Shown: positions 27,200-57,741, counted from the stretch's first letter. The stretch is 64,000 nt of DNA from an uncultured Pseudobdellovibrionaceae bacterium (GCA_964463705.1 CAYXCH010000021.1:65162-129161), one strand, 5' to 3'. The notes: generated by a model from the letters alone, not told the origin. A program made the numbers and translations.

Positions 27200-28330
27200 T
27201 TATGGCGTTATGGAGCGGATATACCAATAAAAAATCCCTTTGGCAGCATCAGAACAACGCCCATCATCCGTACATCCACAACGCCACTGCATCCCCTGGC
27301 GCTCACACTGGTAGACCGCCACAATATTGGAGCGAGCCGTTACTGCCGGAGGGAGTGTGCCAACTGCCGTTCCGATAATCCATTTCCCTGTTGTATCCCG
27401 TATTCCCTGTAATGAGATTGCCTGCGTAAAATTTTGCCCATCCGTTGTTGCATATGCCGTTGCATATGTATATGTTTGTTTATTGCCTGTCCGAAACTGC
27501 CACGGCAACTGATCACAACGAACATGCAGCCTTTCTTCACCTACCGGAATTAATGCGGGATTTTGCACAAATAACGGAATCGGTCCCGTACAGGTACGTG
27601 GGAGTGTTCCCAAATTCTCCGATGAGGAGTTCTGCATGGAAGTATTTTGTAAAGCAGTGGCATTCATGGCAGCGGCAAATGTCTCCGCCATAACATCATA
27701 TCCTTTGGCATTGGGATGGACGCCATCTACCATCAACGTCGTTTGCCAATCCGGTTGTGACACAAATGCCGCATACTGATCTACCAAGTAGAGTTGTGGG
27801 ATATGAGCGGAGGCAACATAAGAGCGAATCTCGGAATTCAATTCCTGTGCCCGAGCGTTTGCCGGTCCATCAATGGGAATGATTGTGGATACATAAATAC
27901 CAATCTGTGCATCATGCTGCACAATTGCATCCACCATTGCACGAATATTGGCAATCGTGCTCTCAATGGAATTTCCATTTAGCACATCATTGGTGCCGGC
28001 ATGAATAAGAACAACGGAGCCCGATGGCGCATCTGCCAGTTCATTTGTAAGATTTTGCCGCAAGCGATTCAATATTTGCGGTGTCTCTTGTCCACTGACT
28101 GCCGAATGATCATAATCACCATCTCCCACTCCGTTACGAAACGGTCCGACAAAATCATATGCCCCCATTCCAAGCAATCGCTGTAACGTCCCACGGTAAG
28201 AAAAATAAAACGGTGCCGGATACCCTTCGGTAATGGAGTCGCCTAGTGGGAGAAGTCGTGGAGGTGCCGCCGATACAGTGTCCACAATCAAAACAAAAAG
28301 CAGTATCCCGCCAAATAACAATCGGAACAT
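27200..28330 (-). CDS. Secreted SGNH/GDSL-family hydrolase with C-terminal Cys-rich module shared with the 1435-aa surface protein
   Basis: Signal peptide, then LGDSITEGY (block I Ser), GTNDV, DGVHP (block V). The last ~90 aa, TAYATTDGQNFT...QWRCGCTDDGRCSD...FYWY, are homologous to the C-terminus of ORF 30061..34368. Confidence 0.7.
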   Translation of the reverse strand: MFRLLFGGILLFVLIVDTVSAAPPRLLPLGDSITEGYPAPFYFSYRGTLQRLLGMGAYDFVGPFRNGVGDGDYDHSAVSGQETPQILNRLRQNLTNELADAPSGSVVLIHAGTNDVLNGNSIESTIANIRAMVDAIVQHDAQIGIYVSTIIPIDGPANARAQELNSEIRSYVASAHIPQLYLVDQYAAFVSQPDWQTTLMVDGVHPNAKGYDVMAETFAAAMNATALQNTSMQNSSSENLGTLPRTCTGPIPLFVQNPALIPVGEERLHVRCDQLPWQFRTGNKQTYTYATAYATTDGQNFTQAISLQGIRDTTGKWIIGTAVGTLPPAVTARSNIVAVYQCERQGMQWRCGCTDDGRCSDAAKGIFYWYIRSITP

Positions 28331-30060: not shown

Positions 30061-33000
30061 CTAGCGCGATACCGCTGTTTCATATCCTGCAACATACCAG
30101 ATAAATCGGCCGGCGGCGGGATCAGAGCAGACACCGGAACCGGTACATCCGCATTGCCACTGATTTCCGCTACGCTTACACGTATACGTTGCCACATACT
30201 GTTGACCGCCATCCGCCGGAAGTTGTATCTCACCACGCCCGATAACCCATTGTCCCGTTGAATCCATTGTACCACTTACCGGTACGGAATTGGTAAAGTT
30301 GGAACCGTCGGTTGTATAGTATGCCGTATTCCACGTATATATCGTATCCCGATCTTCTCCAACCACCGCAATAGGTGAACCGCCATCACAGTATACATCA
30401 ATAATTGCAGCACCATTAGTCAATGTTTCGTTTAGCTCACTCGGGACACGCGTTTCACATGAGTGTCGCAAATCTCGCGTAACCGGCGATACCGGACTTG
30501 TCGGTGATGTGCCAACCTCTGTTGATGCTCCTATCGTTGTTGTTGTTGTATTCTTCGTTCCAGTGGTGGTAGTTGTCGTATCGTTGGGACACTGACGGAA
30601 TTCACAATTATTCTTCGGATCCCTTCCCACATATGTCCGTCCATCGGCGCAAAGTTTAACATCTGCCGTACATGCCGTCTGAACAACATCTTTATCCTGT
30701 GTATTCTCCGTATCAACACTTCCGACATATTTTGCAAGCATACATCCGGGATTCAAGCTGGCATTTTCACCATCCGAGTGAACCGCCGCCACACTGTACG
30801 CATCTTGTGACAGTACAACACGACCCACACCCTCCGCATGACCTTGCGCTTCTACCGTTTTTAGATCCGTTGTCGGATTTGTTTGAACAATCGCCTCTCC
30901 GTTTTTCCCATAAAACGCAACGTAGTATCGCTCGTTCGGCTGATCTTGATTATGGCGACCATCAAAGGAGTCTGATGCGGAAAGATATACTTCATACACA
31001 CCGCGCGGAATTGTGATACCGCTGATAACATCTTTTTGCCCCGCCCATTCCAGACGCTGTGTAAACCGTACAATAATATCTCGAGAACTTCCCGTCTTAA
31101 ACGGACAGTAATTAATATACTGGGCATTTTCCGTTCCATCCACCGCCGTTGTTCCAATATGATCACCCACAACAACAGTCAGCGTCTTTTTATGCTCCGC
31201 TTCACCGCTCTTTCGCGGAGTACACGTCAAAGTAAATTCTGTTGTTTGATCTACATACATCAACTCTTCCTGACTACTCCATGTCTGCAAATCAATAGAC
31301 TTTACCGCCGCCCGCGCTCGTACATAAGCGGAATTGTTTTCCATTCCCTTGCGAGAGACCTTACAGGATTTCATTCCATAGAAATCCCAACTTAGCAAAA
31401 CATATCCCGGATCAGTCAGGTGCGGTTTATTGGCGGTAAAGTACCGAATACCGGCCGTCCCCCCGACGCGAACATCTTTGGTGCGAACTTCTGTAATTGT
31501 CGCATCCGCCAAGTCATAACATGCAAGGGATACATGGACTGTTCCATCTTCAAATCCATGAAGTGCAAACGTCTTACTATATGCCGTTGCCTCATAGTAT
31601 ACGGCACGCGGAATCAACTCTATCGCCCGACTTCCGGACGAAGTGCGCTGTGATGCAACCAAGCGACAACGCATCGGTTTCTTATCCACCACCGCCCAAG
31701 TAGCGGTAACACTTCCACCGGACTCTACACTTTCCGGCGTAACATCAAAGGAGGAAATAAAGGTCCCCGCCGTGGAAGGATCTCCGGAAGTATCCGCCGG
31801 ATCCGTTGTTGTTCCCGTGTCGGAAAATGTAATAATTACGGTTCGTGTATCGTTGGTATTTGTTCCCACACGCCAACAATCCAGTGCCAATACAACCTGA
31901 TCACCGGATGCGGCGGTAGATCCGAAATTACTCCACGTCAATGACCCCTTTACAGTAAGTTTATCCTTTCCTTCCACAACCTTAACAAGAGACTCATCAA
32001 TTGCCTTGATCCCGGCAACCGTCCATCCGTTATATGCACGACAGTGACTGCGATCATCAGCATAGTTCCACGCAATGGAGAGATCACTTCCCGGAGCTAC
32101 CGTAATGCTATCCGATGCTCCATTAACGGTAAATGCAAATGCGGGCGCATCAGAATCAGTCTGCTGTGTGGTATCTCCTTGAACTTTTACCGTTATACTT
32201 GCAGATACCTCATTAAGACCAAACGCATTGGAACAGGTGATGGTGTATGTTGAGTCTGCGGTAATTCCCGGAACGGTAAACTCTCCCTGTGGTTTCAGGA
32301 CGGTACGATAAATACGAAACGTCGTTGCATCGGAAGCACTTGCCTTTACATCGTTGGCAGACCATGCACCGGACGCCGTACAAAATGTACGATTCGGAGC
32401 ATTCCACTGTAGCGTAAAGTGTTGTCCGGGCGCAACCGTTTGTGTGCCTTCTTTGATAGAGAATGCAACAGTTCCATCTGTTGCCGTAGGAGCATTTCCC
32501 ACCGTTTTTGTCGCTGTCAACGGTTTTGTGTCGGGCTGTACCACTCCGTTGGCACTCACTCGATGACGCAGACATCGTATTGTGAAAGAATAATATCCGG
32601 CCGGCGTTTGAAACTCCACATTTCCGTTCGGCACAAGAGCGCGAGGAGATCCGTCCTTCTCAAACAAGAGCTCGGGCTTATTCTGCAACAATTCTTCCGT
32701 TGTTGTATCTCCCGTGATCAAACAGTAGTCTTTTCCGGTAGTTTTCCACTGTAATGATACGGTATACATTTCATTGTTATCCGGAGATGATGCCACCGCC
32801 TGAAAATCCAATGATGCGGAATCCTGAGACACGAACCCTCCACTATCATCGGAAGAATCATTGTTATTTCCATTGTTGGAAGAGTTACCACCTGCCGAAT
32901 CAACAACGTTAAGAGTGATTGTGGAAGTTTTGATATAATGGCGTGGTGCCGGATACTTACATGTTAATACCGCCTTATATTCCCCCGGAGAGTCAAATAC

Positions 33001-34368
33001 CACCGGATAGAATACCCTATTATTAGATGCTGTGGATTGTAGTTTTCCTCTATCAAAATCTGCATCATATTTGGAAAATGTCGCATCACCCACCTTTGAA
33101 ACCCTGATCGAACATTCCGTTGCAGGTACGGTTAATTTTTTTATCTTAAAATAGTTAAACCAATTCAATGTTACCGTCTCACCAATGGCAATATTATCTT
33201 GCTTTGTTGCATAAAATGATAATATTGCACGATCACCGGTGACCTCACCACCCGTGGCATCCATCGCCTTAAAGCGAATATTTGCACGTAATGGATAGTA
33301 AGTTTCCGTACCACATTCTTCATGTGCTTGACACTCTCTTGTGCCGCGACAACGTAACTCAAATGTCTGTGACCAATTAATGCTGTCAAACGTAAGTGTG
33401 TCTGATGTCTTGACATCCGGACGATATTGATCCAGACTTGCACTGCATGAATCAGCATTCGGAACATTCCAAGAAATCTTTACCGGCGTATCCAGTGGCA
33501 CCGAAATATCTCCCGATGTATTCTCGTAAACGGTATCACCAACGATAACGGCAAAAGGTCGCCTACTTTCATCCACGGATGATGTATCTACTTTTACGGT
33601 ACGATGCGAATCATAGTATGTTCCTCCACTCTTTGAATGCTCAAGACATTTTAGGTGTATATTAAGATCCGAATTTCCATAATCATCCGCATGGAGTGTT
33701 ACTTGACCGGATTTTTTAGAAACACCGGGAACAGGTTTCTCGTTAACAAACATCCTACACCTATCATCCATTGCGCGAGGTGCATTCCACGATGCGACAA
33801 CGGAACCATATTTTGGAATCGTTTCCTTATCAACAGACAGAGCCGTTTTATCTACAACCGTCATCCACCAGGAACTCCCGTACACCTTTCCATCCTTTGT
33901 ATCTTTGTCACAAACAAGTACAAACGTATTCTTTCCCAGCGAATAAAGATCCGGTGTTATTTTTAAACGTTTATCTTTGGTAATCGTTACTATTTTCTGC
34001 TTCTTTCCCTTAGCATTATCCAAATATACCGTACACTGCGGATAATAAAAAGAACCGCCATCTTCACCCTCCTCGCGTCTTCCAATACCATTAGCATTGG
34101 CAAGTATTGATATTTCCTCATCTTTATACACTTCCGCCCCGCTATCAAATATGCCGTATCCATAAAACTTAATATCGGGTCGACTTTTATCAATATAATC
34201 ATATCCTTCAACAACCTCCGCTGAAGCGGTGTGCATGGACGCAAAGATGCCAACGATACCAATCCCCAGCGCAAGAACCCCCTTCATCACAACATTGCCC
34301 ACCCAATGCCGCACAAAATACCCGATATTATGAGAATATCGTATATATTTGTTTTTCATAAAAACCAT
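30061..34368 (-). CDS. Giant (1435 aa) membrane-anchored/secreted beta-sandwich repeat surface protein with conserved Cys-rich C-terminal module
   Basis: N-terminal signal/anchor helix. Many 90-110-aa repeats of W/Y/T/S/G-rich beta-strand character with paired Cys. The Thr-rich linker TTTTTGTKNTTTTT precedes a C-terminal module similar to the SGNH hydrolase C-terminus. Confidence 0.6.
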   Translation of the reverse strand: MVFMKNKYIRYSHNIGYFVRHWVGNVVMKGVLALGIGIVGIFASMHTASAEVVEGYDYIDKSRPDIKFYGYGIFDSGAEVYKDEEISILANANGIGRREEGEDGGSFYYPQCTVYLDNAKGKKQKIVTITKDKRLKITPDLYSLGKNTFVLVCDKDTKDGKVYGSSWWMTVVDKTALSVDKETIPKYGSVVASWNAPRAMDDRCRMFVNEKPVPGVSKKSGQVTLHADDYGNSDLNIHLKCLEHSKSGGTYYDSHRTVKVDTSSVDESRRPFAVIVGDTVYENTSGDISVPLDTPVKISWNVPNADSCSASLDQYRPDVKTSDTLTFDSINWSQTFELRCRGTRECQAHEECGTETYYPLRANIRFKAMDATGGEVTGDRAILSFYATKQDNIAIGETVTLNWFNYFKIKKLTVPATECSIRVSKVGDATFSKYDADFDRGKLQSTASNNRVFYPVVFDSPGEYKAVLTCKYPAPRHYIKTSTITLNVVDSAGGNSSNNGNNNDSSDDSGGFVSQDSASLDFQAVASSPDNNEMYTVSLQWKTTGKDYCLITGDTTTEELLQNKPELLFEKDGSPRALVPNGNVEFQTPAGYYSFTIRCLRHRVSANGVVQPDTKPLTATKTVGNAPTATDGTVAFSIKEGTQTVAPGQHFTLQWNAPNRTFCTASGAWSANDVKASASDATTFRIYRTVLKPQGEFTVPGITADSTYTITCSNAFGLNEVSASITVKVQGDTTQQTDSDAPAFAFTVNGASDSITVAPGSDLSIAWNYADDRSHCRAYNGWTVAGIKAIDESLVKVVEGKDKLTVKGSLTWSNFGSTAASGDQVVLALDCWRVGTNTNDTRTVIITFSDTGTTTDPADTSGDPSTAGTFISSFDVTPESVESGGSVTATWAVVDKKPMRCRLVASQRTSSGSRAIELIPRAVYYEATAYSKTFALHGFEDGTVHVSLACYDLADATITEVRTKDVRVGGTAGIRYFTANKPHLTDPGYVLLSWDFYGMKSCKVSRKGMENNSAYVRARAAVKSIDLQTWSSQEELMYVDQTTEFTLTCTPRKSGEAEHKKTLTVVVGDHIGTTAVDGTENAQYINYCPFKTGSSRDIIVRFTQRLEWAGQKDVISGITIPRGVYEVYLSASDSFDGRHNQDQPNERYYVAFYGKNGEAIVQTNPTTDLKTVEAQGHAEGVGRVVLSQDAYSVAAVHSDGENASLNPGCMLAKYVGSVDTENTQDKDVVQTACTADVKLCADGRTYVGRDPKNNCEFRQCPNDTTTTTTGTKNTTTTTIGASTEVGTSPTSPVSPVTRDLRHSCETRVPSELNETLTNGAAIIDVYCDGGSPIAVVGEDRDTIYTWNTAYYTTDGSNFTNSVPVSGTMDSTGQWVIGRGEIQLPADGGQQYVATYTCKRSGNQWQCGCTGSGVCSDPAAGRFIWYVAGYETAVSR

Positions 34369-39093: not shown

Positions 39094-39960
39094 TTATCGC
39101 TGTGTTGTTCGTGTACACGGTACATCGGCGCGACAGGTATAAATAATATCTCCACGCTCATCGGTGCGCACTGTTGTAATGCCATACTGTGTCAACCGAT
39201 TGATTACCGCCTCATGCGGATGTCCATACCGATTGTTGCGCCCAACACTAATTACCGCCTCCTTCGGATGCGTCCGCTCCAACAATGCCACCGAAGTGGA
39301 TGTATCCGATCCGTGGTGCCCCACTTTAAGGACCGTAATATCTCGTGCGGGAAGATTACGCTCCTGAGCGGTGGATAAATCTCCGGTAAACCAAAATACC
39401 GTTTGTCCAATCGTATACTCCGTCACAATGCTGGTATCGTTTACATTGCGAATATTCCGCACCTGCGTTTCCCGTCGCGGAAAAAGCACGCGCAACTGTC
39501 CGTACTCCGGCGCTCCTTGTACCATATCTACCGAAACATATTGATCAGCCATAACAACCTCTGCCCGACTCTGCGTCAATGCACTGTGCCACGCCGTTGC
39601 CACACGAGATGTCTTAAATGCATTGGTTGAAATCACGGTCCCGACGCGCAACGTTCGCAACACCGCCACTTGCGCACCGATATGATCCGCATCCGGATGC
39701 GTGGCAATAACAACATCTACCACTCGGTCCCACACGGGCATATATCGCGCCAACGCCTCCAACAGCCGCTGTCCGTCCGCGCCCCCGTCAATGAGAATTT
39801 GTCTCGCACCCTGTGTAATCAAGATTGCATCACCCTGTCCGACATCCAAAAATACCACTCGCACCGTATCATCCGTGCGCACATCATATAATGCCAGCGC
39901 TCCGATACTTATTGCACCCCCCAGTACCAAAACGCCCACAATGTGTCCCAGTAACCGCAT
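39094..39960 (-). CDS. comEC: ComEC/Rec2 C-terminal metallo-beta-lactamase domain protein (separate ORF)
   Basis: FLDVGQGDAILI and HPDADHIGA MBL motifs, with an N-terminal TM segment. TAATG overlap with the upstream ComEC membrane ORF. Confidence 0.75.
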   Translation of the reverse strand: MRLLGHIVGVLVLGGAISIGALALYDVRTDDTVRVVFLDVGQGDAILITQGARQILIDGGADGQRLLEALARYMPVWDRVVDVVIATHPDADHIGAQVAVLRTLRVGTVISTNAFKTSRVATAWHSALTQSRAEVVMADQYVSVDMVQGAPEYGQLRVLFPRRETQVRNIRNVNDTSIVTEYTIGQTVFWFTGDLSTAQERNLPARDITVLKVGHHGSDTSTSVALLERTHPKEAVISVGRNNRYGHPHEAVINRLTQYGITTVRTDERGDIIYTCRADVPCTRTTQR

Positions 39961-41438
39961 TATTTCGACTTATGATGATGAATACATCGTCGGCGACGAT
40001 GTATCATCCACAGTATACAAGCAAATGCCGCCGCATAACACCCCACAACACTCCATAGCGGCGGAGATACGGACACCGTTTCCGCCGTATGGCGTACAAC
40101 AAAAAAGACCCATCCCAATATCAGTGCCGTTACACTTCCCAATACGGCCGCCACCGGTGACGCCACCCACGCACAGAACACCACCAGCACCGAGAGCGCC
40201 ATTGCCGCGGGAATCATCGGCAGTACAACAAGATTACTGATCAATGCCCATGGAGAAATTACGCCGAAATGATAGGCAATCAGTGGCGCAACACTGATTT
40301 GCGCACTCATTGTTACCGCCACCAATTCCCGCAATACCCGAGGCGCGTACCCAATAACACCCCATAATGGCACCAGTCCGATAATCCCCGCTGTTGCCGC
40401 TACGGATAATTGAAATCCGATGTCATACAATCCCCGAAACGGTTGAATCATTACCATTGTTGCCGCCGCCAATGCCAGTGCATTCCATGCTCCGTGAGAT
40501 CGTCCGCCATACACCACCCCTAATGTCACCACCCCCATAATGGCGGCACGCACCGCACTGCTGGGCGCTCCGATCATCACAACAAATGCCGCAATTGCGG
40601 CAATCGCCACCACAATCGCCTGTGTCCGATACAACCCCATTGCCACCGCCAGTACCAATACCGCGTGCGCAATCACCGCCACATTGTATCCGCTCACCGC
40701 TACAATATGTGTTAATCCGGCACCGGAGAATGCCGATTGCCACTCCCGTGAAAGTCGGTCATCTCCTCCAAAAATCAATCCGGCCGAAAGCGCACCCGAC
40801 GGAGCGCTGACATACCGAGCAATTGCCGATTCCCCAAACTGCCGAAATGTTTGCAATACTCCGGCGATACGATCCGGAAACAACCGAGGCGTCCACGGCT
40901 CCACCGTTTTTGTCCGACAAGTATATAATACTCCACGCGCCGCCGCCCGATACGCCCATATCCCCGGAGCATCAGATGATTCGGCAATACGACGTAAACG
41001 ACACGTTGTTCGGATACCATTCGGAACATCCGTAGCCATTACCGGAGTCTCCACACGCAGGCGACGTATCCCGCGAATTGCACACACCTCTCGTGTTTCC
41101 GTGTCCAAACAATCTCGCACCGCCACCGTCAATACTGTTGTAAATGATGACGATCGTACCTCCCGTACCACACCGGATATTGTTACCGTCCGCCCTTCTC
41201 CCGATGTATCGGCAAATGTACTTCGCGCGATTGTTGCACGCAATAAACCGATGGCCACCGCCGCCGACACCGCAACAATCACAAGTGTATGTTTTGGGCG
41301 AAGAATTGCCGCACTACCGCATATCGCCAATGCCAGCAGTCCTCCGATTGGTGACATTTCAGTGGATACTCCGACCGTGGCCGCCACCGTCCCCGCCGAA
41401 AGCGCAAGAAATGTCACAACAGATTTATGCATCATCAC
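39960..41438 (-). CDS. comEC: ComEC/Rec2 N-terminal competence membrane channel domain protein
   Basis: About 10 TM helices and a DUF4131/Competence-domain-like architecture. Ends 1 nt into the MBL ORF. Confidence 0.7.
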   Translation of the reverse strand: MMMHKSVVTFLALSAGTVAATVGVSTEMSPIGGLLALAICGSAAILRPKHTLVIVAVSAAVAIGLLRATIARSTFADTSGEGRTVTISGVVREVRSSSFTTVLTVAVRDCLDTETREVCAIRGIRRLRVETPVMATDVPNGIRTTCRLRRIAESSDAPGIWAYRAAARGVLYTCRTKTVEPWTPRLFPDRIAGVLQTFRQFGESAIARYVSAPSGALSAGLIFGGDDRLSREWQSAFSGAGLTHIVAVSGYNVAVIAHAVLVLAVAMGLYRTQAIVVAIAAIAAFVVMIGAPSSAVRAAIMGVVTLGVVYGGRSHGAWNALALAAATMVMIQPFRGLYDIGFQLSVAATAGIIGLVPLWGVIGYAPRVLRELVAVTMSAQISVAPLIAYHFGVISPWALISNLVVLPMIPAAMALSVLVVFCAWVASPVAAVLGSVTALILGWVFFVVRHTAETVSVSPPLWSVVGCYAAAFACILWMIHRRRRCIHHHKSK

Positions 41439-43252: not shown

Positions 43253-44284
43253 TCAAATATTACGTAATATCACGGTCATGCGCGTCCCATCTCGCAGAAT
43301 TTCCATCGGTACATCCTCTGATGTTTTCGTTTGCAAAAACCACTGCGTCGGAGTGGAAAACATTCCCACTTCCTCTGAGTTAATCGCCAAAATCATATCT
43401 CCCGACCGTAACGGAATATCCTTGCGCATTACCCGTGTCACCAAAGCAACATGTGATACACGACCATCCGGTGCCGGCACCATTGTATATTCAAATCCCG
43501 GTGATTGCATTGTATCCGTTTGCTCATGCACAAAACGATCTACAGCCAATGCCAATGCATCGGACGGCAGTGGCAATGACTGTTGTGCGCGAGATAATGC
43601 CGCAACATCACCGGTTCGTGTAACATACACCGCTCGCCGCTGTGATTGTACACTGTCGTCGGTCAATAGTGCCGTATCCCATTGTACGGCATCGGTTGGT
43701 GTCCACACGTGCGCCTGTGCATGAACGGCACGCGCCCGAATAAAATCCTGTGCCACCGTATCAGCATCAAGAGCAACCAACCGCTGACCGGCAAAAATAT
43801 CCCGGCTTCGCGCAATCGCCACCGGTGACAAATCACTTCGCGGTGTGCGAATAAACGATACTCCCGTTACCGCATCTCGTGCCACCACCGTCCCCGTTTC
43901 CGCTCGCGCATCCAGAAATACCACCCGCACGGATGATGTCGCCATATCATCCTCGGGAAGCATTGCCGCAATCACCCCATCCGTGGTCACAACAATACCC
44001 GTTGCAACCGTCGTATCATTAACCGTAACGGCAACCACGCTCCCGCGTAACCGCTGTATCACATCACGCACAACATCATCTTCAGTAATTTCCGTTTTCA
44101 CCGTCTTTTCAATTACCGTTGTCTGCTGTAACTGCTGTGCGAATATCTTCTCCCCCCATGGATGAGATGCCGCATAAGGGATACCATAGACTTGCATTAA
44201 TGCGCCACCCAACGCGCCACCGACCAATAATACACACAACATTAACACGTTGTACCACCGTGTCTTCTTTTTTGTCATATTCAT
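43253..44284 (-). CDS. Membrane-anchored protein with trypsin-like beta-rich region lacking an obvious catalytic triad and a C-terminal PDZ domain
   Basis: N-terminal TM segment and a C-terminal PDZ-like motif GDMILAINSEEVG...ILRDGTRMTV. No GNSGG serine motif found. Start chosen at MNMTKKK to avoid overlap. Confidence 0.35.
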   Translation of the reverse strand: MNMTKKKTRWYNVLMLCVLLVGGALGGALMQVYGIPYAASHPWGEKIFAQQLQQTTVIEKTVKTEITEDDVVRDVIQRLRGSVVAVTVNDTTVATGIVVTTDGVIAAMLPEDDMATSSVRVVFLDARAETGTVVARDAVTGVSFIRTPRSDLSPVAIARSRDIFAGQRLVALDADTVAQDFIRARAVHAQAHVWTPTDAVQWDTALLTDDSVQSQRRAVYVTRTGDVAALSRAQQSLPLPSDALALAVDRFVHEQTDTMQSPGFEYTMVPAPDGRVSHVALVTRVMRKDIPLRSGDMILAINSEEVGMFSTPTQWFLQTKTSEDVPMEILRDGTRMTVILRNI

Positions 44285-44288
44285 AGAA

Positions 44289-45071
44289 TTACACCACGGG
44301 ACGCCACTGTGCACTCATTAGCACCATCAGCGCCACCAATATCAACAATATCGTATTTACCACAACGCGGGAACGAGAGAGTGTATCACGAAAAAACATA
44401 TCACACATATCCCACACAATATAGTATATCATAAGGAGAACAATTGCGCTGGTCATATGTCCGAATGGCCACCAGAGTGCCACCGCGATTACTTGCACCA
44501 TAACCACTGTTACCGCCACCGCATACATAACCGTCTGCGAAAACCGCCCGCGTGCCACCATGACAAAATATTGCCATGATACCAATAGTGTCCAAAACCC
44601 CAATATGACAAGTACCGCTGTTCGCGGAACGGTGAAATTCACATAAACCGCAAATGTTCCGGCATACCATAAAAACAGTCCGGAAAAAATTCCCGCGACA
44701 ATCATCCCGCGCGCCACGGCATCTCGCACATTGGAACGGAGGCGATATGATCCCAACAAAACGGCATAAACGATTACTGACGCTATCCCCGCCATAATAT
44801 TGCGTTGCACCATGCTATCAACAAAGAACATCAATGACGCCATTCCCAGCAAAAACAGTAGCGGTGTAATGGCAAAAAACAAGTGCCGTGCAATGCGCCG
44901 CGACGCGATAATCGTTATAACACACAATGCCGCGGTAGCAATGGCAAGCGCAACTCCTCCACGTGCCGTATTCGCCGCAAATACCAACAACACTCCGCCA
45001 CAAACAGCGGCATATAGAGCGGTAGCGACATGAAATAAAACCGGTCGTTGATGTACGGATTCCATACTCAT
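44289..45071 (-). CDS. Hypothetical polytopic membrane protein
   Basis: 260 aa with about 8 hydrophobic helices. No family recognised. Confidence 0.35.
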   Translation of the reverse strand: MSMESVHQRPVLFHVATALYAAVCGGVLLVFAANTARGGVALAIATAALCVITIIASRRIARHLFFAITPLLFLLGMASLMFFVDSMVQRNIMAGIASVIVYAVLLGSYRLRSNVRDAVARGMIVAGIFSGLFLWYAGTFAVYVNFTVPRTAVLVILGFWTLLVSWQYFVMVARGRFSQTVMYAVAVTVVMVQVIAVALWWPFGHMTSAIVLLMIYYIVWDMCDMFFRDTLSRSRVVVNTILLILVALMVLMSAQWRPVV

Positions 45072-45089
45072 ACCATACCATGTGCACCC

Positions 45090-45968
45090 CTAGCGTGCAA
45101 TGCGCTGAATGTGCTCCACTACATCTGAACGGTCCACCACCATATCATTTAACATATACACCTCTGTCGGAGGGTGACCGAAACGAGCAATGTCTCGTAC
45201 AATGTCTGTTATACGATCTGACATCGGTACGTCCTCACAGGGTTTCCGCACCGACAATTTCAATCCGTCTCCCCGTCGCGCCGCACATATGGAGCGTCGC
45301 ACATCATCCGATGATGCTCCAAAGGGCAAGACAATCAGAACCGCTCCCGCTTTCCGTACCGCCCGTTCCAATCCTCGTGGTGGTACCACCGACGATTCTC
45401 GCGGAACCAACACTGCCAACACGGGCGCATCCGTCTCTATCACTTCTGCAAGGTGACGTACCGCCCGATGATACGCCACTTCCACCGTACGCAAAAACGG
45501 CACATCCACAATCCACAATCCTTCCTCGGCACCGGTGGCAAACAACCCTTGTGATTGTGCAAATAACCGTGTCTGCGTAACCGCAGCGTTCAATACAATC
45601 GCCGGCAAATACGGAACGTCGGCACGGGCGCGGATCTCCGCCGCTTCCCCACCGTCTACGCAACGAATTCGTACCGTTGGCAATACATACCGCAGCCATG
45701 TCGTCAATATATCGCGAGAGGATGCGTTTGCGGTACAAGACTCCGTTACAAACATCGCGGTAATCGGAGGAGCCGAATATGCCACCCATGTACGGTGATC
45801 ATAGGAAACAACACTGGCATTTCGCAATGCTCGTATTGTAAACCCTTCTCCGCGATATAACTGAACTACATCTACCAATACACTGCCGCATACCAGTCCG
45901 ACCAGAACAATGATTATTGCCGTTCGTGTTTTTATCGCACGACGACATTCTTTCGCAGTCATCGTCAT
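45090..45968 (-). CDS. Hypothetical N-terminally membrane-anchored protein
   Basis: 292 aa with a single N-terminal TM segment. Position upstream of ftsZ, but no FtsA or FtsQ motifs recognised. Confidence 0.3.
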   Translation of the reverse strand: MTMTAKECRRAIKTRTAIIIVLVGLVCGSVLVDVVQLYRGEGFTIRALRNASVVSYDHRTWVAYSAPPITAMFVTESCTANASSRDILTTWLRYVLPTVRIRCVDGGEAAEIRARADVPYLPAIVLNAAVTQTRLFAQSQGLFATGAEEGLWIVDVPFLRTVEVAYHRAVRHLAEVIETDAPVLAVLVPRESSVVPPRGLERAVRKAGAVLIVLPFGASSDDVRRSICAARRGDGLKLSVRKPCEDVPMSDRITDIVRDIARFGHPPTEVYMLNDMVVDRSDVVEHIQRIAR

Positions 45969-46159
45969 AAACGAATTTCACTATCCGGTATTACCGTGTA
46001 ATCATCATATCCGATTGTAATGTTCCGTAACGCCCAGAGTTTCAGTACCGCGCCACATACCACAGCAAAAAGAAACACCAATACCAAACGTACAGAACGG
46101 TGCCGCCACCACCGCCGCACCGGCTTACCGATTCGTCGTATGTACGTCGTTATATCCAT
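45965..46159 (-). CDS. Small hypothetical single-TM protein
   Basis: 64 aa with one TM helix. ATGA-coupled to the downstream gene. May be spurious. Confidence 0.2.
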   Translation of the reverse strand: MDITTYIRRIGKPVRRWWRHRSVRLVLVFLFAVVCGAVLKLWALRNITIGYDDYTVIPDSEIRL

Positions 46160-47351
46160 GACCGCTTACTGTAGCACGAGCAAGCGTTTCGCGCAAGAAT
46201 TCCGTGTATGGATGATTGTGCAATGCCTCTGTTGTATACCGTTTATTCGCCGTCCGCAGAGCCGCCGCTCCGATGCGTTCTCGCAAGGACGCATCGTCAA
46301 TCAACGCGCTCAGTGCCGTTACCCACTCTTGCGTCGTCTCCGCAACATATCCATCCACTCCCTGCGTTATCGCTTCGCGAAATGTTTGAGTGGCACTGGC
46401 AACCGTCGGCACTCCGACAATTCCCGCCTCAAAAAATTTCAACTCACTCTTTGCCTGACAAAACGGGTTATCTTCCAATGGCGCAATATTAATGTCCACC
46501 GATGCGATATTGGCAAAATGTTTCATTCGCGGAACATATGGCCGACAGATAAACCGATCGGCATAGGATTGCAGCGCCGGGTCCAGATCCAACGGCCCGT
46601 AAATTGCCACCCGCACCTGTTTGTAACGCTGAAAAATTTCCGTCAATACCGGTGTTAATATGGCGAAATCCTTATTATGACTGAGTACTCCGCTAAAATA
46701 CCCGATTGTCACCGTATCGGCAGATACGTGCCGATGGCGGCGAAGACGACGCGCCCGCGCACAGTCTTGTTGCGACAACATATTCGGAACAACAAACACC
46801 CGTTTCCCTTCCTCTCGCAGCCGCTCCGCAAGATACGATGTTGACACCGTGGCAACACGAACATACGGATCACGCACCATTTCTCCACCAATACCATTCT
46901 TATACTGTAAGCGCTCCAACGGCTGCATCTGTGTATAAAAATCCATGTAACGCAAAAACTTCGGATCATATACCAAATCATCCGTTTCAACAATGATTGT
47001 CTTCCCTGCGGCTTTGGCGGCATCATAGAGTGCCTTGGCGGATCCCATATACAATACACGATGAAATACAAACACTTCAAATCGGCGAACATATCGTGAA
47101 AGAAACGGGTTATCCTGTACCGTTACCTGCGCCGCAATCCCGGCACGGCGTAACGCCTCTGCCACATGATGTGCTCGGTACCGCGCACTATCTCCAATTC
47201 CGGACGTGATTATCAATACCGTTCCCTTTGGCACCCACATCATCCGTACAAATGTCACCGCTCCGTGAACCGCGCGTCGCACCCCCCACACAATCCCATC
47301 ACGGCGGATTACGGCGATAACCTTCCCGCATTTGATAAGAAACAGCTTCAT
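46125..47351 (-). CDS. Glycosyltransferase family 4 (GT-B, group 1)
   Basis: C-terminal E..G.VGVPTVASATQTFREAI...GYVAE GT4 motif region. Start set at ATG 47351 (MKLFLIK), giving an ATGA overlap with the Calx-beta protein stop. Confidence 0.7.
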   Translation of the reverse strand: MKLFLIKCGKVIAVIRRDGIVWGVRRAVHGAVTFVRMMWVPKGTVLIITSGIGDSARYRAHHVAEALRRAGIAAQVTVQDNPFLSRYVRRFEVFVFHRVLYMGSAKALYDAAKAAGKTIIVETDDLVYDPKFLRYMDFYTQMQPLERLQYKNGIGGEMVRDPYVRVATVSTSYLAERLREEGKRVFVVPNMLSQQDCARARRLRRHRHVSADTVTIGYFSGVLSHNKDFAILTPVLTEIFQRYKQVRVAIYGPLDLDPALQSYADRFICRPYVPRMKHFANIASVDINIAPLEDNPFCQAKSELKFFEAGIVGVPTVASATQTFREAITQGVDGYVAETTQEWVTALSALIDDASLRERIGAAALRTANKRYTTEALHNHPYTEFLRETLARATVSGHGYNDVHTTNR

Positions 47352-50300
47352 GACTCTTGACGTCCTTCGCGTATCATTCGTCGCAATACCATCGCAAGCA
47401 ATATTGCTAACAGCAACAATAACAACAGCAACACGACCAGCCATATCCATTGATAACCGCGAGATGACGATTCCGGTACCCGTGTTTGCACACCTAATAC
47501 TTTTGGAGAATTGCGAGATACGGTAACTGTCGGCGTCGTTGGTCGCTCTTTTTGTTCCGTCGCTCGCAACGCCGCCACGGGGACAATAGTCTCCCGCGGT
47601 GCAACCGATCGTGCCGCCGTCTCTCCCAATGCTCGCAACGGACGTGTTACCGTTTGCACAACGGTTGCCGGTACCTCCGTCTTCTTCTTCTTTTTCTTTG
47701 CGGAGCGATCACGTCCCTTATCACGAGAGGAGTTCTCCGATGCAACAATATCATCTTCATCATCATCAATCGTTGCCATCGCCGTATCCGTCAAGATTGT
47801 TACGTGAGGCAGGGATGGTGACGCAATGCGAACACGGACCGTTTCCTCTCCCTCTAACACCGCATCATTTACCACCGGCACCGTCAGCCGTGCCGCCGTC
47901 TCCCCCGGCGCAATCGCTACAACACGAGTCCCGAACACACTACTACCATAATCCTCCGCACTTGCCGTACCGCCATCTACCGTGACATCAAATGCCACGC
48001 TTTCCGATGCTCCATTCGGCGCGGACAACACGACCTCAAAAATCATATCGGTGGGCGCATGCTCCGCCCCGTTCTGCACGGTACGCACAACTGCGGTAAC
48101 CGGTCGCACCTCATCGTCGGCGAGAGTGGCGGTGGCGGTGGACGTATCAATTGTCAACGCCGCAATACTGGGATCGCTTATTGTGGCAATAATCGTTTCC
48201 TCTCCCTCATAAATCGTATCATTTAATGGTGAAATCGTAATCACCGCCCGTTGCTCGCCGGATGGAATACGTACGGTAGAATCCGGTGCCACATAATCCG
48301 TTCCTTGTTCCGCCGTTCCGGATAGCGCCAATGCAAATGTCACCTCTTGCCCGGTGGCGTTTATTCGATCCAATGCAACCGTGAATGTCACCGGCGTACC
48401 GTCCTCCCGACCCTGTTGCGTCGCACTAATTGTTGCACCACGCGTATCGTTATCGGTAATTGTTGCCGTTGCACTCGCCGTGGTAATGGTAACGGCGGAA
48501 TGTGATGGATTGGAAATCTGCGCACGAAGTGATTCTGTCACTTCCATCAACGCATCATCCACCACCGGCACCGAAAGAACGCCGGCGGCGGCACCGGACG
48601 CAACACTGAGACTGTGTGCCCCCAACGTATCGGCATAATCATCACCGACAGTAGCACTTCCATCCGTACGAACAATATCAAACGTAATGGGCGACGCAGT
48701 ATCATTGGTGTAATCCAGTGTGACAACAAAGGTCATATCTGCGCCACCCTCTGCACCGGGGGTGGCGGATAATGTCGCCGACACCGCCGTGTTATCAACA
48801 ATCTGTGTCGTGGCGGTGGCCTGTGCCATCGTAACGCGTGATGCTGTTGTTTGCACCGTCCCGGTCACCGTCTCGGCGTCCTCCAACGCCCGATCGGATA
48901 ACACTGCAACGGAAAACGATGCCGTTCGCTCACCGGGCGCGATACTTGCGGTGCGAACAGCGGAATTATTGTCATCATAATCCACTCCTCCGCGGGCGGT
49001 ATCCGATGTGCTCCCCAATGCCAATGTCACGGGAATTGCCGTACCGGTATCATTTACTTTATCTAACGTAACGGTAAACGTTACCGGTGTTGGTGTTTCT
49101 CCCTCTGCACCGGGGGTGGCGGAGACGGTTGCCTGCGCAATACTGTCATCGGAAATTGTTACCGTAACCGCTCCACCATTGGTCATACTTACCGCCGTCG
49201 CATTATCACTGCGCGGCGTAAGAATAACACGAAATGTTTCGTCCGTTTCCAGTGAATCGTCCGCTCGCACCGGAATCGTAATATCCGCCGTTGCACTCCC
49301 GGGTGCAATGACCGCCGTCTGTGCCGTATTGTCAAAATCCCCATCCGTGTCTCCACCGTGTGCCGTTTCATCGGCAAGCGCAACGGTAAATGCAAGATCC
49401 CCACCGGTTGTATTTGTATATGACGCACCGGTATCATCAGTCAATGTTACACGAACAACGGCATCACGAACCGTTCCATCAGCATATTCCCTCCCGTTCT
49501 GCACCGTTTGTACCACTGCCGAAAGAGCAGTTGTTCCACATCGTAATGCGGGAGTGTTTGCCGTCATATCACCGGTTGCATTTGATGCACCGACAATTTC
49601 CACTCGCGCATTATCGGCAAGTGATGTCGTAATCTGTAACACGCCGGCAGATGTTACCAGTCCGGCACGTGGGGAGCGTATATCACGAACAAACCCCAGC
49701 GGTGTCACTGTTCCGGTATTCGTAACGGTTACATTTTCTACCGTAACATCCCGTGCGGTATACAATGCCAATAACGGACTGTCCGTAAATGTTACATCGC
49801 GAATTGTGATTGCTCCGCTCTGTGCGGCATGAATGGTCAGCGGTGCGCTGCGCACATCACGCAGCGCATCATCATTCCATGTTGCCTCACAGCGTACAAC
49901 GGAACTCGTAGTGGCGGGTCCGCGATGTCCAAACGCTTCAAGATGTACATTACGTATCGTCTGTGCTGCCGTGGATCGCAATACGATAAATGCCCCTGTT
50001 GTCAATGACATCGTCGTGGGTACACCACCTTGCAACAAGGTAATGGATGTATTCACATTGCGCAGTGTTGCCCTCTGTGTGGGAGAAATATCCACTGCCG
50101 CATCACCGCCCACATAAACAAACACCGGCGGCAACCCTTGTGCCTGACCACTTTGATCAAACGTTACCGTCGCTCCGTCCTCCACCACCAGCCGCGCAGA
50201 CCCAAATAACACAATCGGCTTTGTTACCGTTTCCCCGTCGGTCAATGTTAATGTATCAGTTCCCTCTACACAAGTAATCACGGGTTGTGGCGCCGTCGGC

Positions 50301-50554
50301 GGAACAAGTGTGGCAACCATTGCCTGTGCCGATGCACAGTCTTGTGTAATATTCGCCAACCCCGTAATTTGCAGCACCGAGCCGGTGGGCGTCTGCATTG
50401 TTCCCCCATCAACAAAGATATGCGCATTCGCACTGAATGGCGCAATACAGAACAAAAAAAACACGCCGACGCGAACGATGGAAATAGTCATCTTCATAAG
50501 CACAGCGTGTCGTATATTACACCGCATAATAACACAAAAACGATGTTTTATCAA
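47348..50554 (-). CDS. Large secreted surface protein: right-handed beta-helix (pectate-lyase-like) N-terminal region + at least 5 Calx-beta repeats + poly-Lys linker + C-terminal hydrophobic anchor with basic tail
   Basis: Signal peptide. Beta-helix-like TIRDVTFTDSPLL...VTVENVTVTNTG. Repeated xDDxxExxETF/V Calx-beta motifs (RADDSLETDETFRV, VNDAVLEGEETVRV, ...). KKKKKKTE linker, then ...WIWLVVLLLLLLLAILLAMVLRRMIREGRQES. Confidence 0.6.
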   Translation of the reverse strand: MIKHRFCVIMRCNIRHAVLMKMTISIVRVGVFFLFCIAPFSANAHIFVDGGTMQTPTGSVLQITGLANITQDCASAQAMVATLVPPTAPQPVITCVEGTDTLTLTDGETVTKPIVLFGSARLVVEDGATVTFDQSGQAQGLPPVFVYVGGDAAVDISPTQRATLRNVNTSITLLQGGVPTTMSLTTGAFIVLRSTAAQTIRNVHLEAFGHRGPATTSSVVRCEATWNDDALRDVRSAPLTIHAAQSGAITIRDVTFTDSPLLALYTARDVTVENVTVTNTGTVTPLGFVRDIRSPRAGLVTSAGVLQITTSLADNARVEIVGASNATGDMTANTPALRCGTTALSAVVQTVQNGREYADGTVRDAVVRVTLTDDTGASYTNTTGGDLAFTVALADETAHGGDTDGDFDNTAQTAVIAPGSATADITIPVRADDSLETDETFRVILTPRSDNATAVSMTNGGAVTVTISDDSIAQATVSATPGAEGETPTPVTFTVTLDKVNDTGTAIPVTLALGSTSDTARGGVDYDDNNSAVRTASIAPGERTASFSVAVLSDRALEDAETVTGTVQTTASRVTMAQATATTQIVDNTAVSATLSATPGAEGGADMTFVVTLDYTNDTASPITFDIVRTDGSATVGDDYADTLGAHSLSVASGAAAGVLSVPVVDDALMEVTESLRAQISNPSHSAVTITTASATATITDNDTRGATISATQQGREDGTPVTFTVALDRINATGQEVTFALALSGTAEQGTDYVAPDSTVRIPSGEQRAVITISPLNDTIYEGEETIIATISDPSIAALTIDTSTATATLADDEVRPVTAVVRTVQNGAEHAPTDMIFEVVLSAPNGASESVAFDVTVDGGTASAEDYGSSVFGTRVVAIAPGETAARLTVPVVNDAVLEGEETVRVRIASPSLPHVTILTDTAMATIDDDEDDIVASENSSRDKGRDRSAKKKKKKTEVPATVVQTVTRPLRALGETAARSVAPRETIVPVAALRATEQKERPTTPTVTVSRNSPKVLGVQTRVPESSSRGYQWIWLVVLLLLLLLLAILLAMVLRRMIREGRQES

Positions 50555-50566
50555 GAGGTAGTACGC

Positions 50567-50788
50567 TTATACACTGCGAACCGAGCGTGTACGGTGAGCG
50601 CGAGAAGCGGTACGACATGTACGGAATCCCGCGATGTGGTATAACGGACACCATCGCACCGTTGCCGTTGCGAGTACCGCCACACCGACAAATCCCCACC
50701 ATGCGCCACTCTTTACCGCCGCGGTAACAATCGCCAACCCCACCGCTACGCGAACCATGCGATCTATCGTTCCAATATTGCATTGCAT
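50567..50788 (-). CDS. DUF2892 (YgaP-like) small membrane protein
   Basis: MQCNIGTIDRMVRVAVGLAIVTAAV...WWGFVGVAVLATATVRWCPLYHIAGFRT matches the DUF2892 G..LL.TG..G.CP.Y pattern. Start at an internal Met of the longer ORF. Lies 12 nt upstream of the Calx-beta gene. Confidence 0.5.
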   Translation of the reverse strand: MQCNIGTIDRMVRVAVGLAIVTAAVKSGAWWGFVGVAVLATATVRWCPLYHIAGFRTCRTASRAHRTRSVRSV

Positions 50789-50811: not shown

Positions 50812-50838
50812 CAGTATACCATAAAATATGGTATACTG
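50812..50838. promoter_or_regulatory. Perfect 11-bp inverted repeat CAGTATACCAT-(5 nt)-ATGGTATACTG carrying extended -10-like TGGTATACT on both strands
   Basis: Read directly from sequence. Located about 25 nt upstream of the DUF2892 start. The same TGGTATACT motif recurs at 53383-53391. Confidence 0.35.
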
Positions 50839-54318: not shown

Positions 54319-54323
54319 TTATG

Positions 54324-54394
54324 CACGGGATGAGGGAGTTGAACCCCCACTGGCGGTTTTGGAGACCGCTGTTCTACCATTAAACTAATCCCGC
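54324..54394 (-). tRNA. tRNA-Trp (anticodon CCA)
   Basis: Reverse complement GCGGGATTAGTTTAATGGTAGAACAGCGGTCTCCAAAACCGCCAGTGGGGGTTCAACTCCCTCATCCCGTG. Anticodon loop CTCCAAA. Confidence 0.75.
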
Positions 54395-54405
54395 AGCAGT
54401 GGCTG

Positions 54406-54478
54406 AGCCAACACGCGGGATTGAACCGCGGACCTCATCCTTACCATGGATGCGCTCTACCGACTGAGCTATGTTGGC
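54406..54478 (-). tRNA. tRNA-Thr (anticodon GGT)
   Basis: Reverse complement GCCAACATAGCTCAGTCGGTAGAGCGCATCCATGGTAAGGATGAGGTCCGCGGTTCAATCCCGCGTGTTGGCT. Anticodon loop ATGGTAA. Confidence 0.75.
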
Positions 54479-54484
54479 AGGGTG

Positions 54485-54568
54485 TGGGCCGGGACGGATT
54501 CGAACCGCCGTAGACCAAAGGTCGTCAGATTTACAGTCTGATGCATTTGACCACTCTGCCACCGACCC
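54485..54568 (-). tRNA. tRNA-Tyr (anticodon GTA), type II long variable arm
   Basis: Reverse complement GGGTCGGTGGCAGAGTGGTCAAATGCATCAGACTGTAAATCTGACGACCTTTGGTCTACGGCGGTTCGAATCCGTCCCGGCCCA. Confidence 0.75.
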
Positions 54569-54596
54569 ATTTGTGGAGATGGTTCCATCTCCCATG

Positions 54597-54669
54597 AGCC
54601 ACCTGTCGGACTCGAACCGACGACCGACGGTTTACAAAACCGCTGCTCTACCAACTGAGCTAAGGTGGC
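54597..54669 (-). tRNA. tRNA-Thr (anticodon TGT)
   Basis: Reverse complement GCCACCTTAGCTCAGTTGGTAGAGCAGCGGTTTTGTAAACCGTCGGTCGTCGGTTCGAGTCCGACAGGTGGCT. The acceptor stem and D-arm are identical to tRNA-Thr(CGT) at 6169-6241. Confidence 0.75.
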
Positions 54670-57179: not shown

Positions 57180-57207
57180 AAAACCGCCCCGGAGGGCGGT
57201 TTTTTTA
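57180..57207. terminator. Bidirectional intrinsic terminator between convergent rpmE and the rhodanese gene
   Basis: aaaaaccgccccggagggcggttttttt: GC-rich 7-bp stem with a 3' T-run on plus and an A-run giving a T-run on minus. Confidence 0.6.
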
Positions 57208-57741
57208 TTGTGTGCAACGTCGGTTCCATGGAGCATATCCAAGCAGCTTCATCATTAGGCAGTTGCCGCTAGCACCCCCGTAAAGTAATCCGCCACCCAC
57301 AAACCAAACGATAAAAACAAATGCCGGGTGAAGGGCGATACTCAGGAAGAGGCCCATAAGAATCAACGCACCCGCCACAATCATCACCTGACGAACTAAG
57401 GAAATCGGCGGACCCGCACCGTCACTCTTACACACTGTCGGCAACCCTTCCGCATGCCACTGTGCGATACCGCCCTGAACATTATAAACAGTCTTTACGC
57501 CGGCGTCTTCCAAGATTTTACATGCCATCGCGCTACGATTACCACTTGCACAATGCACATACACTTCACGATGTTTTTTGAGATCGTCTATATGCTCTCC
57601 CAACTCTTCCAATGGAATATTGACAACGCCGGGAATGCGTAAGTCCTTATGTTCTCCACCGGTACGAACATCAATACAAAGAATATCCGGTGATGGATGC
57701 TTGACCTTTTTATAAAACTCTTGAGGAGAAATTGTGTTCAT
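57205..57741 (-). CDS. Rhodanese (sulfurtransferase) domain fused to DUF2892 membrane domain (YgaP-like)
   Basis: Rhodanese core with catalytic Cys in YVHCASGNRSAMAC. C-terminal two-TM DUF2892 (…GGLLYGGASGNCLMMKLLGYAPW). Confidence 0.75.
   Translation of the reverse strand: MNTISPQEFYKKVKHPSPDILCIDVRTGGEHKDLRIPGVVNIPLEELGEHIDDLKKHREVYVHCASGNRSAMACKILEDAGVKTVYNVQGGIAQWHAEGLPTVCKSDGAGPPISLVRQVMIVAGALILMGLFLSIALHPAFVFIVWFVGGGLLYGGASGNCLMMKLLGYAPWNRRCTQ

Follow-up and report, generated by a model that had tools for sequence, protein, structure and literature searches.

What is the large, repeat-bearing protein encoded between a small membrane-protein gene and a glycosyltransferase gene in CAYXCH010000021.1:65162-129161, and what do its neighbors have to do with it? 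An earlier note on this 64,000-nt stretch (GCA_964463705.1, listed as an uncultured Pseudobdellovibrionaceae bacterium; hereafter the window, with positions counted from its first letter) had read the locus as a putative operon of three genes, in which a protein with a β-helix and Calx-beta repeats ends in the layout of a sortase- or exosortase-type sorting signal. Our analysis leads to a plainer answer, to which we give a probability of about 0.62. The protein, here called the Calx protein, is probably a lineage-restricted, Sec-exported, single-pass type I (N-out/C-in) surface protein whose gene has its own promoter and represents an accessory insertion before the conserved gene of a GT4-type glycosyltransferase (GT4).

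The Calx gene is a real gene, a long minus-strand open reading frame (ORF) at 47348-50497. Read at its longest, from TTG 50554, it yields 1068 amino acids (aa), the length given in the earlier note; from ATG 50497, the start chosen by the gene callers behind the public protein record P0001, it yields 1049 aa. We rejected the TTG, which is the first hexamer (-35 box) of a promoter-like site, TTGATA-17-TATTAT, and took the ATG as the start because the TTG falls in this site and the site recurs at a related locus, L001. The minus-strand ORF ending at 47348 stands, at a revised length of 1049 aa. Counted from this ATG, the distance to the DUF2892 gene upstream is 69 nt and not the 12 nt given before. 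The span 47348-50788 assigned to all three genes covers the Calx gene and the DUF2892 gene and omits the GT4 gene (46125-47351). In the 1049-aa numbering, the parts of the Calx gene and its product are the following.

50526..50554, minus strand: promoter-like site of the sigma-70 type, TTGATA-17-TATTAT with extended -10 TG (10/12 consensus matches)
50423..50497, minus strand: start codon ATG 50497 and Sec-type signal peptide, aa 1-25, MKMTISIVRVGVFFLFCIAPFSANA with the cut ahead of H (sequence; AxA site of orthologues)
49532..50422, minus strand: orphan N-terminal head, aa 26-322 (all-β model; three invariant Cys; shared by 3 proteins)
49142..49531, minus strand: Calx-beta repeat 1, aa 323-452 (orthologue: first repeat in P0002 and P0039)
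48110..49141, minus strand: Calx-beta repeats 2, 3, and 4, aa 453-570, 571-684, and 685-796 (Pfam; repeat comparison)
47756..48109, minus strand: Calx-beta repeat 5, aa 797-914 (50-55% identical to its orthologue, the final repeat in P0002/P0039)
47681..47755, minus strand: post-repeat block DDIVASENSSRDKGRDRSA then K6, aa 915-939 (family alignments; model; DNA)
47507..47680, minus strand: predicted disordered tether rich in T, V, A, R, and P, aa 940-997 (predicted local distance difference test, pLDDT, ~25; no secondary structure)
47483..47506, minus strand: juxtamembrane motif PKVLGVQT, aa 998-1005 (conserved in three orthologues)
47384..47449, minus strand: predicted C-terminal transmembrane helix WIWLVVLLLLLLLLAILLAMVL, aa 1017-1038 (hydropathy; model helix)
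47348..47383, minus strand: predicted Arg-rich cytoplasmic tail RRMIREGRQES, aa 1039-1049, and stop codon (sequence)

The family to which this protein belongs is very small. An exhaustive phmmer search with the N-terminal domain against 1.84 billion representative proteins (standing for ~15 billion) found the domain in three proteins only: the window protein, P0002 (835 aa, 38-41% identical to it), and P0039 (839 aa, about 30% identical). Each forms a cluster by itself. Further matches to the full-length protein have only the Calx-beta repeats in common with it, and a scan of genome contigs with the N-terminal alignment found no relatives. All three genes lie at one locus, between a CNNM/CBS gene and a GT4 gene, and their products are 30-41% identical, whereas the flanking genes reach 66-74%. 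The serine hydroxymethyltransferase encoded in the window is 74-79% identical to those of Ca. Moraniibacteriota metagenome-assembled genomes, with its remaining matches in Patescibacteria (Candidate Phyla Radiation, CPR) or DPANN archaea, and by this comparison the host lineage groups with Ca. Moraniibacteriota. Judged from these alignments, the three Calx genes are orthologues that evolve fast within a single small CPR lineage.

Export is indicated at the N terminus, where the signal peptide proposed in the earlier note is of the standard Sec type and has an AxA site, which is kept at the equivalent position in the orthologues (QSAHA directly before the cut). A signal peptidase I gene lies in the window at 2777-3400, and this type of enzyme would cut the 25-aa signal peptide after ANA.

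The middle of the protein consists of repeats. Pfam Calx-beta (PF03160) matches over five stretches at 112.5 bits (cut-off 27; E 1.6e-32), no other Pfam family matches the protein, and the acidic motif D-D-x-x-x-E-x-x-E occurs five times, at aa 413, 534, 647, 759, and 877, 112-121 aa apart. A weak match to the Calx-beta (CBD) region of NCX1 was also obtained (TIGR00845 and PDB 3us9). The claim of at least five such repeats with an acidic motif is thus borne out with exactly five, and the Calx-beta assignment held in the hidden Markov model search. A full-length AlphaFold2 (AF2) model built on the three-sequence alignment is poor (pLDDT 52.5) and contains five β-sandwich blocks of ~7 strands each, at low confidence. 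P0002 and P0039 have three repeats each. Repeats 2, 3, and 4 of the window protein are each nearest to the lone middle repeat of P0002 (47-50% identity), which argues for an old triplication that lengthened the stalk. We propose that the five β-sandwich repeats serve as a stalk on which the head is carried. Our literature search on Calx-beta in CPR/Patescibacteria found no papers.

Beyond the repeats, the linker RDRSAKKKKKKTEVP is present as the earlier note had described, and so are the C-terminal hydrophobic segment and its basic tail, which read WIWLVV(L8)AILLAMVL then RRMIREGRQES; the string quoted there is one Leu short. The family consensus directly after the repeats is V-A-x-E-N-x-x-R-D-K-x-R, followed by a run of 3-6 Lys. 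Phase variation at this run was considered and rejected: the codons are AAG AAA AAG AAG AAG AAG, so that repeat slippage keeps the frame. The full-length model predicts a short helix at aa 914-925 and no structure at aa 926-1014, and the tether differs in length and sequence among the orthologues. The ENxxRDKxR and oligo-Lys block, together with the ~60-aa disordered tether, would take the stalk across the wall zone. The C-terminal helix has a mean Kyte-Doolittle hydropathy of 3.59, and the model helix at 1015-1048 is confident (pLDDT 77-79). Ahead of it the family has the motif P-[KE]-V-L-G-[VA]-x-T, in which P, V, L, G, and T are invariant in three orthologues; 9-14 residues later follow G-x-x-[WF]-x-W at the start of the helix and then R-x-x-R-x-x-R-[QE]-E. 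The segment after the helix is 11 aa long in the window protein and ~24 aa in P0002; in P0039 it is acidic and extends to ~50 aa. The segments of P0002 and P0039 have in common a D-x-E-x-W-W-[ED]-K motif, which from its sequence looks like a cytoplasmic feature rather than part of a discarded tail. Overall, the domain order of signal peptide, five Calx-beta repeats, Lys-rich linker, and C-terminal helix with basic tail holds.

This C terminus could be a sorting signal or a plain anchor. When the C termini of all three orthologues were compared with NCBIfam and Pfam sorting and anchor models at E<=10, no model matched beyond generic membrane-helix noise, the Gram_pos_anchor and LPXTG models included, and the C terminus has no LPXTG, PEP, PGF, or GlyGly signature. 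The short basic tail is not family-wide, being confined to the 11 aa of the window protein among the three orthologues. Within the 64-kb window we found no second ORF with the motif or a similar tail, no sortase, exosortase, or rhombosortase among the ~35 of roughly 55 ORFs scanned with Pfam or NCBIfam, and no TLxTC motif in a plausible context. A 260-aa polytopic protein (44289-45071) was considered as an exosortase-like enzyme and rejected; no family matched it, and the genes called in the examined L001 stretch do not include it. A literature search on sortase in Patescibacteria returned nothing relevant. Because no model matches, the tails are long and variable, and neither a second substrate nor an enzyme appears in 64 kb, we favor a plain anchor; the best reading of the C-terminal helix, from sequence features, is an ordinary stop-transfer anchor of an N-out/C-in protein. 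The Leu-rich helix, with WxW outside and Arg inside, would then be kept in the membrane uncleaved.

The competing view is that the whole cassette (P[KE]VLG[VA]xT, spacer, WxW helix, and basic tail) is a new CPR-specific sorting signal, at which a putative enzyme would cleave, attach, or release the protein. Five positions of the motif are invariant though the orthologues are only 30-41% identical and their tethers have diverged freely, and the layout of motif, helix, and basic tail fits that of known sorting signals. A look-alike also occurs on an otherwise unrelated partial CPR protein (L093, 3-302), encoded two genes upstream of a GT4 orthologue: it has an acidic low-complexity region and repeated V-L/A-G motifs, followed by PQVAGKQT, 9 aa, a helix, and GRKKRNI (ending ...DKPQVAGKQTQNVRAQ-VIATMILIGAVLLILTWTV-GRKKRNI). 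This resemblance rests on four residues, however, and cannot carry the claim. The tails of ~24 and ~50 aa, partly acidic and with their own conserved WW motif in two orthologues, also fit a discarded signal poorly, as do the lack of any curated CTERM model at E<=10 and of a paralogous substrate or candidate enzyme in the window. Searching Joint Genome Institute (JGI) metagenome contigs for the C-terminal cassette yielded 203 pattern matches, of which 0 were confirmed. We therefore regard a new sorting signal in this family as improbable, and its extension to P-x-V-[LA]-G-x-x-T, a 9-14 aa spacer, a helix, and a basic tail as an undescribed Patescibacteria-specific sorting or processing signal with a putative enzyme as very improbable. 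The reading as a sortase- or exosortase-type signal is thus not supported. That note had itself named, as what would speak against it, a stop-transfer anchor unique to one protein and without a family, and our findings come close to this: the cassette occurs in the three orthologues and, loosely, in the L093 protein. The PxVLG motif is the sole loose end with the potential to grow into something larger.

The basic block raises a different possibility, in which the membrane form is a precursor and the ectodomain is shed by proteolysis at RDKGRDRSAKKKKKK, to act as a secreted glycan-degrading or glycan-binding factor. The R-D-K-x-R and oligo-Lys block is conserved directly after the last Calx-beta repeat, where the disordered region starts, and a gene for an HtrA-like protease lies a few genes downstream (43253-44314). 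The oligo-Lys run may equally bind anionic wall polymers or lipid head groups, however, and the HtrA-like gene is of a common housekeeping type and is not among the called genes of the examined L001 stretch. Shedding thus strikes us as very unlikely, and we retain the membrane-anchored form.

At the other end of the stalk lies the orphan head, for which a pectate-lyase-like β-helix had been proposed. Its Cys residues C54, C76, and C320 are invariant in the three family members, and its sequence contains repeated '..I.NV.F.n..' segments. The AF2 model of the head (pLDDT 53.6; predicted template modeling score, pTM, 0.60) is all-β, with many short, evenly spaced strands. Profile support for a β-helix is lacking: with the limit relaxed to E<=10, Pfam gave nothing meaningful for the head of the window protein, a single family member out of the three reached Pfam Beta_helix (PF13229), at E 0.092, and a profile of the three head sequences against PDB sequences gave no match. 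The weak three-dimensional prediction does resemble a β-helix. Foldseek matches below threshold (best E 0.05; TM score 0.2-0.3) are nearly all right-handed β-helix proteins, namely polygalacturonase, PL1/PL3/PL6 lyases, tailspikes, adenovirus LH3, and E1B-55K. A right-handed β-helix or β-solenoid is accordingly a plausible, if unproven, fold for the model, which we favor at clearly better than even odds. Stabilized by disulfides among its Cys residues and probably a right-handed β-solenoid, the head would be displayed farthest from the cell.

A DsbA-related protein is encoded after the GT4 gene both in the window and in L001. The window protein at 45090-45968 and the L001 protein are related by blastp at E 2e-32 and 38% identity; Pfam DSBA/Thioredoxin_4 is recorded on the L001 protein, and the window counterpart has no Pfam hit. 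The genes that adjoin or follow the Calx gene in the window are these.

50567..50788, minus strand: YgaP-like_TM (DUF2892) small membrane protein (Pfam E 1.8e-19)
46125..47351, minus strand: GT4-type (GT-B fold) glycosyltransferase, 408 aa (Pfam Glyco_trans_1_4, E 1.6e-11)
45090..45968, minus strand: DsbA-related membrane-anchored protein, context (38% identical to the L001 DsbA/thioredoxin-like protein)

The upstream gene was correctly named as DUF2892, matching PF11127 (YgaP-like_TM, formerly DUF2892) at 70.1 bits against a cut-off of 25.3. Its place in an operon with the Calx gene is another matter. The site at 50526-50554 is strongly promoter-like by its consensus match, and in L001 a near-identical TTGCCA-17-TATTAT, with the same TTTTGTGT ahead of it, stands in front of the Calx orthologue. 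In L004 a 17-bp GC-rich terminator hairpin with a T-run follows DUF2892, and a promoter-like site comes next, before the Calx orthologue. Promoter-like sites are thus found upstream of the Calx gene in all three loci. DUF2892 adjoins the Calx region in L001 and L004, with an extra MerT-like gene between the two genes in L001, and is not present in L091, a locus with a GT4 orthologue. Because a promoter-like site, and in L004 also a terminator, separates the genes, we set DUF2892 outside the Calx unit; it is probably a conserved neighbor in a separate transcription unit, and the proposed operon would lose this member.

The region ahead of DUF2892 has features of its own. A perfect 12-nt inverted repeat, CAGTATACCATA / TATGGTATACTG, with arms 3 nt apart (50812-50823 and 50827-50838), lies upstream of the gene at 50812-50838 and covers the spacer and the -10 box of a promoter-like TTACCA-18-TATACT on the minus strand (50842-50813). 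From its position it looks like an operator. L001 and L004 keep the TATACT box but do not preserve the full palindrome. At a distance of 7 kb from the stand-alone DUF2892 gene is another YgaP-type gene (57205-57741, minus strand), in which a rhodanese domain is fused to YgaP-like_TM.

On the downstream side the coupling is tighter. The Calx stop and the GT4 start overlap as ATGA at 47348-47351 (4 nt), as the earlier note had stated, and the two genes are separated by a 1-nt gap in L001 and L004. Co-expression of the two genes is well supported by this arrangement, and in our model the GT4 would be a cytoplasmic enzyme co-expressed with the Calx gene through the overlapping stop and start, with DUF2892 outside the unit. 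The GT4 assignment is also upheld, by three matches to Pfam GT-B families (PF13692 Glyco_trans_1_4, E 1.6e-11; PF13524 Glyco_trans_1_2, E 1.5e-08; PF00534 Glycos_transf_1, E 3.1e-07); no relative of known structure was found for the window GT4.

A role for this enzyme as a dedicated partner of the Calx protein finds less favor. The GT4 is 66-69% identical among the three loci, compared with 30-41% for the surface protein, and nine further GT4 orthologues, 47-66% identical, occur on metagenome contigs. On L085-L087 the GT4 gene is flanked by the genes of a second GT4 and an ABC-2 permease; the gene of a Wzt-type ATPase carrying a Wzt_C domain comes next, and a GT2/methyltransferase protein and an NAD-dependent epimerase are encoded nearby. 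In L088-L090 it adjoins the same epimerase and another GT4. L091 has the closest of the nine (66%); there the genes run CNNM, MerT-like, GT4, and a Calx gene is missing. Judged from these neighborhoods, the GT4 is a conserved enzyme of an ABC-transporter-dependent (Wzm/Wzt) glycan pathway. Since the GT4 occurs in Wzm/Wzt clusters and in L091 stands without a Calx gene, its primary job would therefore be independent of the Calx protein.

The same junction gives some room to the idea that the Calx protein is glycosylated, as an S-layer-like protein or as an adhesin, and that its Thr/Ser-rich tether receives glycans through the coupled GT4 pathway, as in archaeal S-layer glycoproteins that have a C-terminal membrane anchor. 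Stop/start coupling in three of three genomes, a tether rich in T, S, and P, and an architecture that recalls membrane-anchored S-layer proteins would all suit it. Yet the unequal conservation of enzyme and surface protein and the presence of the GT4 without a Calx gene in L091, and inside Wzm/Wzt clusters on other CPR contigs, speak against it. By its sequence, in which no hydrophobic segment is visible, the GT4 seems to be a soluble cytoplasmic enzyme, and no oligosaccharyltransferase is encoded nearby. Occurrence in three genomes among 15 billion proteins also makes a core S-layer part unlikely, though S-layer proteins diverge fast. We consider a glycoprotein of this kind unlikely; the data do not call for a functional Calx-GT4 link such as glycosylation of the Thr-rich tether.

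Gene order across the loci indicates that the interval between the CNNM and GT4 genes is a variable slot, into which the Calx gene with its own promoter appears to have been inserted directly before the GT4. Other genes occupy this slot in the relatives. In L001 (1630-3093) and L004 (1667-3329), an extracytoplasmic function (ECF)-type, SigW-like sigma factor and a family-less protein of 290 or 355 aa are encoded between CNNM and DUF2892; the latter protein is possibly an anti-sigma factor. The pair is not in the window, and the L001 slot also holds a Band-7 protein. A 121-aa membrane protein with a CC motif and a weak MerT-like match (E 1.5e-5, below cut-off) is encoded at L001 3416-3781 and L091 1202-1567; its gene adjoins DUF2892 or GT4 in the relatives and is not in the window. 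At the 3' end of the window GT4 gene, a putative gene for a 64-aa protein with one hydrophobic helix (45965-46159, minus strand) shares 35 nt with the GT4 gene and 4 nt with the start of the DsbA-like gene.

Several of these observations weigh against a single-pass, plainly anchored surface protein encoded by an accessory gene. The P[KE]VLG[VA]xT motif is conserved 9-14 residues ahead of the helix, where a plain anchor has no need of it, and the PQVAGKQT-helix-basic-tail ending of the unrelated L093 protein is a loose look-alike. Sorting enzymes and other substrates were sought in ~64 kb of genome only. The tight Calx-GT4 junction, kept in all three genomes, would suit a functional link such as tether glycosylation. 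The promoter and terminator calls are consensus matches only. For the head, the model has low confidence (pLDDT 53.6) and Foldseek found no match at E<=0.001 in PDB or BFVD. The family evidence consists of three metagenome-derived sequences.

What such a protein might do is a matter of speculation. A partner cell or another surface may carry a glycan that the protein adheres to, binds, or cleaves; this would fit both the rapid divergence of the protein and an attached CPR lifestyle. An existence attached to other cells is generally ascribed to CPR/Patescibacteria, of whose surface molecules few are known. As a fast-diverging, repeat-expanding, membrane-tethered protein with an orphan head, the Calx protein is a reasonable candidate for host or substrate contact in Moraniibacteriota. 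We find no evidence for a new sorting system or for a dedicated three-gene operon at this locus, and the more exciting readings are thereby removed.

Elsewhere in the window, a GDSL lipase (376 aa, 27200-28330, minus strand) and a 1435-aa protein without a Pfam match (30061-34368, minus strand) have in common an 85-aa, Cys-containing C-terminal domain (49% identity, E 1e-23; no family match), which may be a lineage-specific anchoring or binding module. Nearly all long ORFs of the window are on the minus strand, and every 2-kb bin has a negative GC skew (-0.08 to -0.27), which is milder over 48-50 kb. Horizontal transfer was considered from composition and set aside, since the milder skew may simply reflect the T/A/V/D-rich repeats there. 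A tRNA cluster Thr-Tyr-Thr-Trp lies at 54323-54669, and ComEC is split over two adjacent genes (39094-41438, minus strand), encoding a Competence domain (492 aa) and then a metallo-β-lactamase domain (288 aa).

Set beside known systems, each part of the locus has a counterpart from which it departs in some respect. The tripartite C terminus of motif, hydrophobic helix, and basic tail resembles the signals of sortase, exosortase, archaeosortase, and rhombosortase substrates, which likewise stand at the C-terminal end of secreted proteins, but the Calx-protein motif is distinct, lies 9-14 residues from the helix, and is followed by long tails in two of three members. The window GT4 resembles the GT4s of Wzm/Wzt pathways in that its orthologues (47-66%) stand beside a second GT4, an ABC-2 permease, a Wzt ATPase, and an epimerase; it differs in being detached from such a cluster and placed after a surface-protein gene. 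With right-handed β-helix proteins such as PL1/PL3 pectate lyases, polygalacturonases, and phage tailspikes, the modeled head has in common an all-β build of short, regular strands, although it has no significant sequence or structure match to them and catalytic residues are not assignable.

Two further groups resemble the protein as a whole. Archaeal C-terminally anchored S-layer and stalk proteins (SlaB and the haloarchaeal S-layer glycoprotein) have a signal peptide, a β-rich ectodomain, a Thr-rich linker, and a single helix, with glycosylation genes adjacent. The Calx protein has the same order of parts and an adjacent GT4, but no sequence relationship to them, and its host is bacterial. 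Multi-repeat Calx-beta surface and adhesin-like proteins (P0003-P0038, including Maribacter proteins) are also large secreted proteins with tandem acidic-motif repeats. They have the repeats alone in common with the window protein, at 25-34% identity; none has the head domain, and by precomputed Pfam annotations they carry other terminal domains, whereas the window family ends in a single membrane helix. The Calx protein is thus a new and very rare member of the membrane-tethered repeat-stalk surface proteins, assembled from familiar parts and an orphan head.

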